A stretch of DNA of 64,000 bases from assembly GCA_027337125.1 (NCBI GenBank), contig GCA_027337125.1_3057.1; one strand, written 5' to 3'. Each line of letters starts with the position of its first letter. Position 1 is the stretch's first letter. The notes below the pieces were generated by a model. That model made no database searches, was not told where the DNA came from, and saw only the letters and a list, made by a program, of their open reading frames with translations. The position numbers and the translations under genes are program-made. Below are positions 20,057-21,946 of the stretch, in pieces. Source of the DNA: a phage.

Positions 20057-21085
20057 ATGTCATCAATACCTTGGATTGATAATGAGTTTGCATATCGTGC
20101 GCTAGCTCATTTACCTAAATTCACACAAGTAAATAATAGTTCAACTTTTAAATTACGGTTTAGATGCCCTGTTTGTGGAGATTCAAAAACCGACCAAAAT
20201 AAAGCTCGTGGATGGTATTATGGCGATAATAATGAAGGAAATATTCATTGCTATAACTGTAACTATCATGCACCAATCGGAATATATTTAAAGGAGTTTG
20301 AACCCGATTTATATCGTGAGTATATCTTTGAAATAAGAAAAGAAAAAGGTAAAAGTCGTCCAGCAGAAAAACCTAAAGAACTTCCTAAACAACCTGAGAA
20401 GAAAATAATTAAATCTCTTCCGTCATGCATTAGATTGGATAAACTGGCGGAAGACCATCCAATTATAAAATACGTAAAAGCTCGATGTATTCCAAAGGAT
20501 AAATGGAAATATCTTTGGTTTACAACCGAATGGCCTAAATTAGTTAATAGTATAGCGCCAGGAACATATAAAAAGGAAATATCTGAGCCTCGTCTTGTTA
20601 TTCCAATTTATAATGCTAATGGAAAAGCTGAGTCTTTTCAAGGACGTGCATTAAAGAAAGATGCTCCTCAAAAATATATCACCATCAAAGCTTATCCTGA
20701 GGCAACAAAAATCTATGGAGTCGAACGGGTTAAAGATGGTGATGTATATGTTCTAGAAGGACCTATAGATTCTCTTTTTATTGAAAATGGTATAGCTATT
20801 ACGGGTGGTCAATTAGACCTAGAAATTGTTCCATTTAAAGATAGACGTGTATGGGTTTTAGATAATGAACCTCGTCACCCTGACACTATTAAACGAATGA
20901 CTAAATTAGTTGATGCAGGAGAAAGGGTTATGTTTTGGGATAAATCTCCCTGGAAATCAAAAGATGTCAATGATATGATTAGAAAGGAAGGTGCAACCCC
21001 TGAACAAATTATGGAATATATGAAAAATAATATTGCCCAAGGGTTGATGGCTAAAATGCGGCTATCTAAATATGCTAAGATTTAA
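20057..21085 (+). CDS. 61: gp61, DNA primase
   Basis: 342 aa; zinc ribbon CPVCGDS...CYNCNYH and TOPRIM-like EGPIDS; matches recalled T4 gp61. Confidence 0.95.
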   Translation: MSSIPWIDNEFAYRALAHLPKFTQVNNSSTFKLRFRCPVCGDSKTDQNKARGWYYGDNNEGNIHCYNCNYHAPIGIYLKEFEPDLYREYIFEIRKEKGKSRPAEKPKELPKQPEKKIIKSLPSCIRLDKLAEDHPIIKYVKARCIPKDKWKYLWFTTEWPKLVNSIAPGTYKKEISEPRLVIPIYNANGKAESFQGRALKKDAPQKYITIKAYPEATKIYGVERVKDGDVYVLEGPIDSLFIENGIAITGGQLDLEIVPFKDRRVWVLDNEPRHPDTIKRMTKLVDAGERVMFWDKSPWKSKDVNDMIRKEGATPEQIMEYMKNNIAQGLMAKMRLSKYAKI

Positions 21086-21282
21086 ATTAACCCAACTAAA
21101 GCAAATGCTAAATCTACGAATGTATCAAGAGTAATTACTGGAATACTAACGCCATGAGCAATAGCAACTGGCGATAAAACAAAATTCCAAAGTAAAATTC
21201 CTATCATAGCAGAAATAGTAAAAGCTATACGTTTTTTATTACCTTTGATGGCATTAACAAGTGCCATTAATTTTTGTACCAT
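21082..21282 (-). CDS. small hydrophobic protein encoded antisense to the early gene block (66 aa)
   Basis: ORF track; strong AGGAGG RBS upstream on the - strand; GATAAATA (near-late-promoter) motif further upstream. Confidence 0.45.
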   Translation of the reverse strand: MVQKLMALVNAIKGNKKRIAFTISAMIGILLWNFVLSPVAIAHGVSIPVITLDTFVDLAFALVGLI

Positions 21283-21330
21283 GCGTCGTCCTCCTTTAAA
21301 TTAATATTTATCGCAAATTTTACAAAATTT

Positions 21331-21360
21331 GTTTACTTTCTCAGCTTGTTATGGTATTAT
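21331..21360 (+). promoter_or_regulatory. early promoter (GTTTAC -35, TATTAT -10)
   Basis: T4 early promoter consensus, 18 bp spacing; precedes the 21386 ORF. Confidence 0.55.
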
Positions 21361-21385
21361 AAAATAAACTGCTGAGGATAATATA

Positions 21386-21946
21386 ATGATTAATAAAATT
21401 GTACATGAAATGGCTTTAAACGGAGATTCATATAAAATATCTGCCGTAGTTGAGAATTTCATACTTAATAAAGTAAAAGAATATTTCACTGATTGTTCAG
21501 TTAGTTATCAAGAAAAAATGGTTTTAACTGACGATACTGAAAAATCAAATAATTTGTTTTGTTCGAATTTTACCACTAAGAAGCGTACTAGAAGATTTGA
21601 TATTGTTATTGCTCGTAATGGTAAAAAGCATATAATTGAAATCAAACACCAAGTTGGTGGAGGTACAGCTATTGATTCGGTTGGAATATATCTGGAAGAT
21701 AAAGATAAATTAAAAGAATACACAAAAACTGAAAATCCTGTGTCATTGATGATATTAGATTTTTTGCCATGCGGATATTATCCGCGTAATAAGTGGACAA
21801 AAAGAGAATCATTTACTGATAATCCAACCATCCAAGCAAGGTTTAATGAATATGCTAAATCACAAAACGTGTTAGTATTACTATCAAATACATATGATGA
21901 AGAATTATATAATTCGTTTTTTGCTGCAATAAATGAGAGAATATAA
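21386..21946 (+). CDS. PD-(D/E)xK nuclease-like protein (186 aa), function unknown
   Basis: Motif ...[21 protein letters not shown] (D-x12-E-x-K) typical of the restriction-endonuclease-like fold; own early promoter; stop overlaps dam start. Confidence 0.5.

Follow-up and report, generated by a model that had tools for sequence, protein, structure and literature searches.

The locus and its genes

The subject of this analysis is an open reading frame (ORF) of 186 amino acids (aa), here called ORF186, that lies immediately upstream of the DNA methyltransferase gene dam in a 64,000-nucleotide (nt) stretch of phage DNA (contig GCA_027337125.1_3057.1 of GenBank assembly GCA_027337125.1; this whole stretch is referred to below as the window). 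The region is a segment of a Tequatrovirus (T-even) genome, with 99% identity to phage EP01 across the region, and its gene order is 41, dmd, 61.4, an 84-aa ORF, sp, 61.1, primase gene 61, an antisense 66-aa ORF, ORF186, dam and dCTPase gene 56. ORF186 is predicted to encode a compact nuclease of the PD-(D/E)xK superfamily, and belongs with dam to an accessory cassette:

21386-21946, + strand: ORF186, 186 aa, predicted compact PD-(D/E)xK (type IIP-like) endonuclease, from sequence, predicted fold and homologues
21452-21454 (E23), 21599-21601 (D72), 21638-21640 (E85) and 21644-21646 (K87), + strand: predicted catalytic codons of ORF186
21946-22725, + strand: dam, GATC N6-adenine methyltransferase, orthologue of T4 Dam, from Pfam and PDB matches
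~21297-22725, + strand: accessory cassette of ~1.43 kb, comprising an early promoter, ORF186 and dam, absent from the empty-site relative RB27

A reading of the letters alone, referred to below as the sequence-only reading, had singled out ORF186 for a D-x12-E-x-K signature and for a stop codon overlapping the dam start. Both are present: the ORF reads D72-x12-E85-x-K87, and TAA (21944-21946) and ATG (21946-21948) have one base in common (TAATG). Judged by sequence conservation, ORF186 and the 66-aa ORF are real genes and more than chance ORFs, because the ratios of nonsynonymous to synonymous substitution rates (dN/dS) are low (0.05-0.10 for ORF186 among Tequatrovirus copies and 0.08-0.17 for the 66-aa ORF), the length of ORF186 is retained down to 41% identity, and the 66-aa ORF occurs in 693 phage records. 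For dam, the dN/dS is 0-0.03.

Predicted fold, active site and relatives of ORF186

The AlphaFold2 model of ORF186 (predicted local distance difference test score 80.7, predicted template modelling (TM) score 0.79) has the order helix-strand-strand-strand-helix-strand, which is the alpha-beta-beta-beta-alpha-beta core fold of PD-(D/E)xK enzymes, and places the signature residues on neighbouring strands. The nuclease fold that the sequence-only reading had proposed is therefore also predicted from structure. In a Foldseek comparison of the model with the PDB, the top-scoring matches are PD-(D/E)xK nucleases, with low TM-scores and a single match (1xmx) passing an E value of 0.001; the PD-(D/E)xK domains of Can2, Card1 and Bax1 score almost as high as restriction enzymes.

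Nine homologues, with 29-63% identity, share the invariant residues E23, D72, E85, K87, H88, Q89 and G93-T-A-I-D-S98, and thereby the complete E/D/(D/E)xK set of catalytic residues of the superfamily. These residues have counterparts in the restriction endonuclease MunI, since alignment of the ORF186 family with MunI by hhalign pairs D72/E85/K87/Q89 with D83/E98/K100/Q102 (the MunI and EcoRI sequences were confirmed against their PDB entries; position 83 is an A in the MunI-DNA crystal entry). Over the catalytic hairpin, 14 of 20 residues are identical between MunI and the homologue from Klebsiella phage KPV15 (DIAIENTETGKIHVIEIKHQ in KPV15, DFAIENTETHKILFGEIKRQ in MunI). The hairpin is detected only by this homologue and by the family profile, as BLASTP of the window ORF186 against MunI gave no match. 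With EcoRI the family gave no hhalign alignment, the common part being only a short motif (E-I-K-H-Q-V-G in ORF186, E-A-K-H-Q-G in EcoRI). The hhalign probability is 11% to MunI, and significant full-length similarity is found to neither enzyme. A further difference is in the recognition motif, GNAIER in EcoRI and GNAHER in MunI, in place of which ORF186 has the invariant GTAIDS; a specificity other than that of EcoRI or MunI (the latter cutting C^AATTG) is therefore expected. Finally, the carrier of ORF186 is not a bacterium but a lytic phage with 5-hydroxymethylcytosine (hmC) in its DNA. The closest structural neighbours together with the equivalent catalytic hairpin place ORF186 among EcoRI/MunI-like endonucleases, and its sequence and model indicate that it is very probably a restriction-enzyme-like PD-(D/E)xK nuclease of this class.

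Profile searches gave weak pointers to type II restriction enzymes, in agreement with the sequence-only reading. The Pfam family DpnII (PF04556) matched the window ORF186 with 17.6 bits (E 0.0025) over residues 28-111, against positions 152-233 of the 278 in the model, and matched four of the nine homologues, with a best E value of 8.3e-5; the PADLOC model REase_II matched ORF186 with E 5.3e-5. A DpnII-family alignment was built from the sequence of R.DpnII, which was validated by its score to PF04556 (335.7 bits) and by 99-100% identity to database DpnII proteins. Comparison of the ORF186 family with this alignment by hhalign (E 5.5e-4) pairs E23/D72/E85 with the invariant DpnII residues E152/D201/E214. 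The profile similarity to DpnII/MboI enzymes is thus weak but consistent over the catalytic core, whereas the N-terminal part differs. ORF186 begins near position 125 of the 278 in the DpnII model and hence is without the separable N-terminal helical domain of ~100-120 residues that precedes the nuclease domain in DpnII/MboI enzymes (PMC3710099). Taken at sequence level, ORF186 may be distantly related to the DpnII catalytic domain, in a form minimal at the N-terminus, but stands outside PF04556 by the criteria of Pfam. The GenBank record of phage Shinka names the gene 'putative DpnII restriction endonuclease', while nearly all other records call it 'hypothetical'.

Other searches were negative: the PDB sequences gave no match to ORF186 or its family profile even at E 10, NCBIfam gave chance-level FolD matches only, and Pfam gave no match to a GIY-YIG or HNH domain, the domains typical of T4 homing endonucleases.

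Linkage of ORF186 to dam

The product of the window dam gene matches the Pfam family MethyltransfD12 (E 1e-50), and among PDB sequences T4 Dam (579 bits), E. coli Dam (2e-19) and DpnM (2.7e-12), all of which are GATC-specific enzymes. The methylase of the DpnII system is therefore homologous to the Dam partner of ORF186. In every lineage in which the neighbourhood could be read, ORF186 lies directly upstream of, or overlaps, a methylase gene of the D12 class (further lineages are designated by L and a number):

Window and L012: 1-nt overlap
L008-L011: abutting
KPV15 (Jiaodavirus), L018: 7-nt overlap
L007: 20-nt overlap
L006: 35-nt overlap

The pair is found in three genome contexts, i.e. between genes 61 and 56, downstream of rIIB/denB towards gene 39, and directly upstream of rIIA. 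The pairwise identities of nuclease and methylase are strongly correlated (r = 0.98), with the nuclease evolving faster. Joint inheritance of neighbouring endonuclease and methyltransferase genes is the arrangement of type II restriction-modification (R-M) systems, and the linkage that had been pointed out in the window holds in all lineages examined. From the identity of the partner and the weak DpnII similarity we infer a GATC specificity for ORF186.

Presence, absence and decay in Tequatrovirus

The distribution of the two genes was followed in Tequatrovirus records:

Records containing gene 61: 507
Records with dam: 184
Records with full-length ORF186, T2 included: about 147 (about 29%)
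Records with dam and only the last 87 nt of ORF186 (T4, RB59 and others): about 33
Records with neither gene (e.g. RB27, AR1): about 320

The empty site in RB27 reads CCTCCTT followed directly by ATTGCTT. In the window the same sequences flank the cassette, the left junction being CCTCCTT followed by TAAATTAAT and the right junction TTAATTA followed by ATTGCTT. Comparison of the interval between gene 61 and dam across T-even genomes thus identifies ORF186 as an accessory gene that is absent from T4, and not as a core gene. The suggestion that ORF186 and the antisense ORF might both be an accessory insertion stands for ORF186, with promoter and dam included in the unit, and falls for the antisense ORF (see below).

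The counts of records (147 with full ORF186, 184 with dam) give no sign of a nuclease gene without a methylase gene, the two sets not having been matched one by one. Loss in the other direction, of ORF186 with dam kept, has occurred at least three times independently. In T4 and about 33 related records the following segment is missing:

21318-21866: ~549-bp deletion at CAAA microhomology

With this deletion went the promoter and about the first 160 codons of ORF186, and the 87-nt stump that is left is also frameshifted. In phage KarlGJung about the first 121 codons are missing through a separate deletion between 8-bp GATGATAT repeats, and in phages G29 and G4500 the same A-run (about 21424-21429) has lost 1 nt, which shifts the reading frame; dam is kept in both cases. 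Length variation is also seen near the 3' end of ORF186:

21917-21922, + strand: run of six T; five T in T2 and T4, eight T in KarlGJung

In the five-T form ORF186 is shortened to 181 aa with an altered tail, and its stop is uncoupled from the dam start.

The window Dam is orthologous to the 'orphan' Dam of T4, from which it differs in its upstream gene. Because only the frameshifted 87-nt stump of ORF186 remains upstream of dam in T4, sequence comparison suggests that T4 Dam is a secondarily orphaned member of an R-M pair.

In lineage L012, a 93-aa fragment corresponding to the C-terminal part of dCTPase gene 56 (4010-4291) separates the antisense ORF from the cassette and resembles the scar of a duplication on insertion.

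Promoter and hairpin upstream of ORF186

Two elements were identified in front of ORF186:

21332-21360, + strand: T4-early-type (sigma-70) promoter, with -35 box (G)TTTACT, 17-nt spacer and TG-extended -10 box TATTAT
21338-21378, + strand: hairpin spanning the -10 box, with 5' arm 21338-21345 and 3' arm 21371-21378 (GCUGAGGA), the latter over the ribosome-binding site GAGG

A promoter scan alone performs at chance level, with 12 sites found and 12.4 expected. The early promoter that had been assigned to ORF186 is supported because the box is conserved across lineages, not because of the scan: a box of the form (G)TTTAC(A/T)T...TGnTAnnAT occurs ~30-40 nt before the ATG in five further lineages (L012, L008, L002, L007 and L018), the proteins of which are only 29-63% identical, and the promoter is thus kept in six lineages including the window.

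The window hairpin has a predicted energy of -12.1 kcal/mol (z -2.25). In each of the five lineages that were folded (the window, L012, L008, L002 and L007) the -10 box is spanned by a hairpin, unrelated in sequence to the others, with z values of -2.0 to -5.7 outside the window, and the 3' arm lies over the ribosome-binding site in three of them (the window, L008 and KPV15). Transcripts from the cassette promoter would lack the 5' arm, and both arms would occur only in transcripts reading through from upstream. In T4, translation of some genes is restricted to transcripts from an internal promoter, and the hairpin may similarly limit translation of ORF186 to transcripts from the cassette's own promoter.

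Size and spread of the family

An exhaustive HMMER search over 1.84 billion representatives yielded a family of only 11 proteins. No relatives of ORF186 were found in 185,579 species genomes of bacteria and archaea (by pattern and tblastn searches), nor on plasmids in PLSDB, and scans of the IMG/VR and JGI metagenome collections added a few loci, from known lineages only. All family members with identifiable neighbouring genes are from T4-like phages, i.e. Tequatrovirus, Dhakavirus MX01, Jiaodavirus and uncultured lineages; the short L006 contig has no diagnostic neighbour genes. What is new here, as judged from sequences and models, is a putative minimal family of restriction-type nucleases that has Dam as its partner and occurs only in lytic T4-like phages.

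The antisense ORF and other neighbouring genes

Next to the cassette lie the following genes:

20057-21085: primase gene 61
21082-21282, - strand: hydrophobic 66-aa ORF, outside the cassette, 'dam.1' in the RB27 annotation

The 66-aa ORF has the opposite orientation and the strong ribosome-binding site that had been described for it (AGGAGG, complement of 21290-21295, 7 nt before the ATG). It is hydrophobic over residues ~19-66, its stop overlaps that of gene 61 in a convergent arrangement, and it abuts the primase gene in all matches listed. It is intact in RB27 and also in T4, whose RefSeq record leaves it unannotated. As it is conserved next to the primase gene in essentially all phages of the T-even type, empty-site phages included, it was rejected as part of the insertion. 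Upstream of it in the window is a late-promoter-like box (GATAAATA), and an nATAAATA box occurs ~22-30 nt upstream of the ATG in four lineages, with a perfect TATAAATA in L012. These sequences suggest that the 66-aa ORF probably has a late promoter, which would account for its opposite orientation.

A terminator-like hairpin followed by a T run (21245-21270, + strand) lies just downstream of gene 61, within the 5' end of the antisense ORF, and could be the end of the primase transcript or due to chance. The interval between genes 41 and 61 is unlike that of T4 and RB27: between 61.4 and sp the window has an 84-aa ORF (19272-19526, + strand) that in phage G28 is annotated as 'goF mRNA metabolism modulator', and it has no 61.2 homologue between sp and 61.1. 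Gene 56, beyond the cassette, keeps its upstream promoter region. The mechanical ORF call for gene 56 (22771-23304, + strand) begins at TTG (22771); comparison with RB27 and T4 puts the true start at ATG 22786 (MAYFNEC...).

Possible function of the ORF186-Dam pair

We propose, as a moderately probable reading of the sequences and models, that ORF186 and Dam constitute an early-expressed, translationally coupled, mobile cassette of T4-like phages with the order restriction (R) then modification (M), in which ORF186 cuts the unmethylated sites of its partner. The cassette promoter would fire on host RNA polymerase straight after infection, and ORF186, presumably as a homodimer with Mg2+ bound by E23/D72/E85 together with K87, would cut DNA at recognition sites of the partner methylase that carry no methylation, most simply GATC. 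The phage genome, arriving and staying Dam-methylated, would be spared, as would the Dam-methylated enterobacterial chromosome. Since Enterobacterales are Dam-positive, plausible targets are unmethylated incoming DNAs, and the likely victims would be other phages or co-infecting or superinfecting T-even relatives without dam; about two thirds of Tequatrovirus records are dam-less. The pair may also maintain itself selfishly. We infer here the catalytic activity of ORF186, its GATC specificity and sensitivity to N6-methyladenine (m6A), its dimeric state and its biological target, as well as any cutting of hmC or glucosyl-hmC DNA.

One of the known systems most like the pair is DpnII of Streptococcus, which cuts GATC and is blocked by m6A. 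Virus-encoded nuclease-methylase pairs are also known from chlorella viruses (e.g. CviAI, specific for GATC) and temperate phages (EcoP1I of P1), where they are expressed on infection. The chlorella-virus enzymes degrade unmethylated host DNA; the hosts of the phages with ORF186 differ in being Dam-methylated, and the target is here probably other invading DNA.

Several observations weigh against the proposed R-M function. In Dam-positive enterobacterial hosts there is no obvious target for a GATC enzyme that is sensitive to methylation. The GATC sites of T-even DNA contain glucosyl-hmC, a modification that stops most type II enzymes, so that protection by Dam may be unnecessary and the DNA of T-even competitors may be uncuttable. 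The DpnII system has its methylase gene first, whereas the order here is R then M with a one-base overlap. The DpnII match of the window ORF186 is below the Pfam gathering threshold of 23 bits, the hhalign probability between the two families is only 30%, and K87 corresponds to N216 in DpnII. T2 itself has the C-terminally altered ORF186 of 181 aa. Finally, literature searches found no study of ORF186.

A more specific form of the proposal, which we regard as unlikely, is that ORF186 has evolved to cleave unmethylated GATC in DNA with hmC or glucosyl-hmC and serves as a weapon between phages. A Dam-marked T2-type phage would then destroy co-infecting dam-less T-evens or convert them through break repair, with a homing-like spread of the cassette. 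If true, this would add both to the partial exclusion among T-evens and to the low frequency of GATC in the whole clade. In the window no other of the 256 tetramers is as depleted as GATC (68 observed versus 217 expected, a ratio of 0.31), and its ratio is 0.35 in dam-less RB27 (positions 1-50000) and ~0.3 in Jiaodavirus fragments. The depletion is therefore clade-wide and not tied to the cassette, and as evidence of ORF186 action it was rejected.

The mobility of the cassette might also be explained by a selfish endonuclease of the homing type, comparable to the seg and mob genes, that cuts cassette-less T-evens (e.g. at the empty junction of 61 and 56) and spreads by gene conversion with dam as cargo. 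The precise presence/absence polymorphism at an intergenic site would fit, as would the three insertion positions, the gene 56 fragment beside the cassette in L012 and the fact that in T4 gene 56 has the homing endonuclease gene segF as a neighbour. Promoters and masking of the ribosome-binding site serve to regulate homing-endonuclease genes of phages, and the cassette has its own promoter and a hairpin able to mask that site in read-through transcripts. We nevertheless consider this very unlikely: the linkage to dam is invariant over three sites and down to 29% identity, although such an endonuclease would have to be retargeted for each site and would not need a methylase, and the structural relatives are restriction enzymes, not GIY-YIG or HNH proteins. 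Homing and the proposed R-M function are compatible, as break repair could also spread an R-M nuclease that cuts at many sites.

Two other functions for ORF186 appear highly improbable. One is that of a methylation-directed nuclease like DpnI or MutH, which would cut Dam-methylated or hemimethylated GATC in the cytosine DNA of the host, with glucosyl-hmC shielding the phage and phage Dam topping up host methylation. Early expression from the conserved promoter agrees with such a role, the host chromosome is the one abundant GATC-methylated substrate present, and the pairing of nuclease and methylase in hosts that are already dam+ would be accounted for. With the mark provided by host Dam, though, some nuclease genes without phage dam would be predicted, of which the record counts give no sign, and the asymmetric loss (R lost, M kept) fits an M that protects against R. 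Moreover, in sequence ORF186 resembles DpnII and neither the DpnI nor the MutH family, and 186 aa leave no room for a winged-helix domain that reads methylation. The other, equally improbable, is a non-restriction role, either as a DNA-binding or regulatory partner of Dam with a nuclease fold, or as a nuclease acting on branched DNA or on nucleic acid of host defence, the link to dam being historical. The nearly equal Foldseek scores of Can2, Card1 and Bax1 and the small family size with its confinement to T4-like phages are in keeping with this. An inactive scaffold is argued against by the fully invariant E/D/ExK set, however, and the linkage and translational coupling to dam persist in three genomic contexts, while neither the Pfam scan nor the predicted structure of ORF186 has a sensor or partner domain.

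Significance

T4 Dam is a textbook 'orphan' methyltransferase without a settled role in the phage. In T2 and about 30% of its relatives, the present data indicate, dam is the downstream member of an intact nuclease-methylase pair that is under selection, and a simple deletion removed the nuclease from T4. Should ORF186 prove active, the pair would represent an R-M system of phages that are strictly lytic, carry hmC and infect hosts with Dam-methylated DNA, which points to a role in competition between phages and not in action against the host. As a restriction enzyme ORF186 would then also be very small, with a family almost without members in public data, and could be useful if it is able to cut modified DNA.

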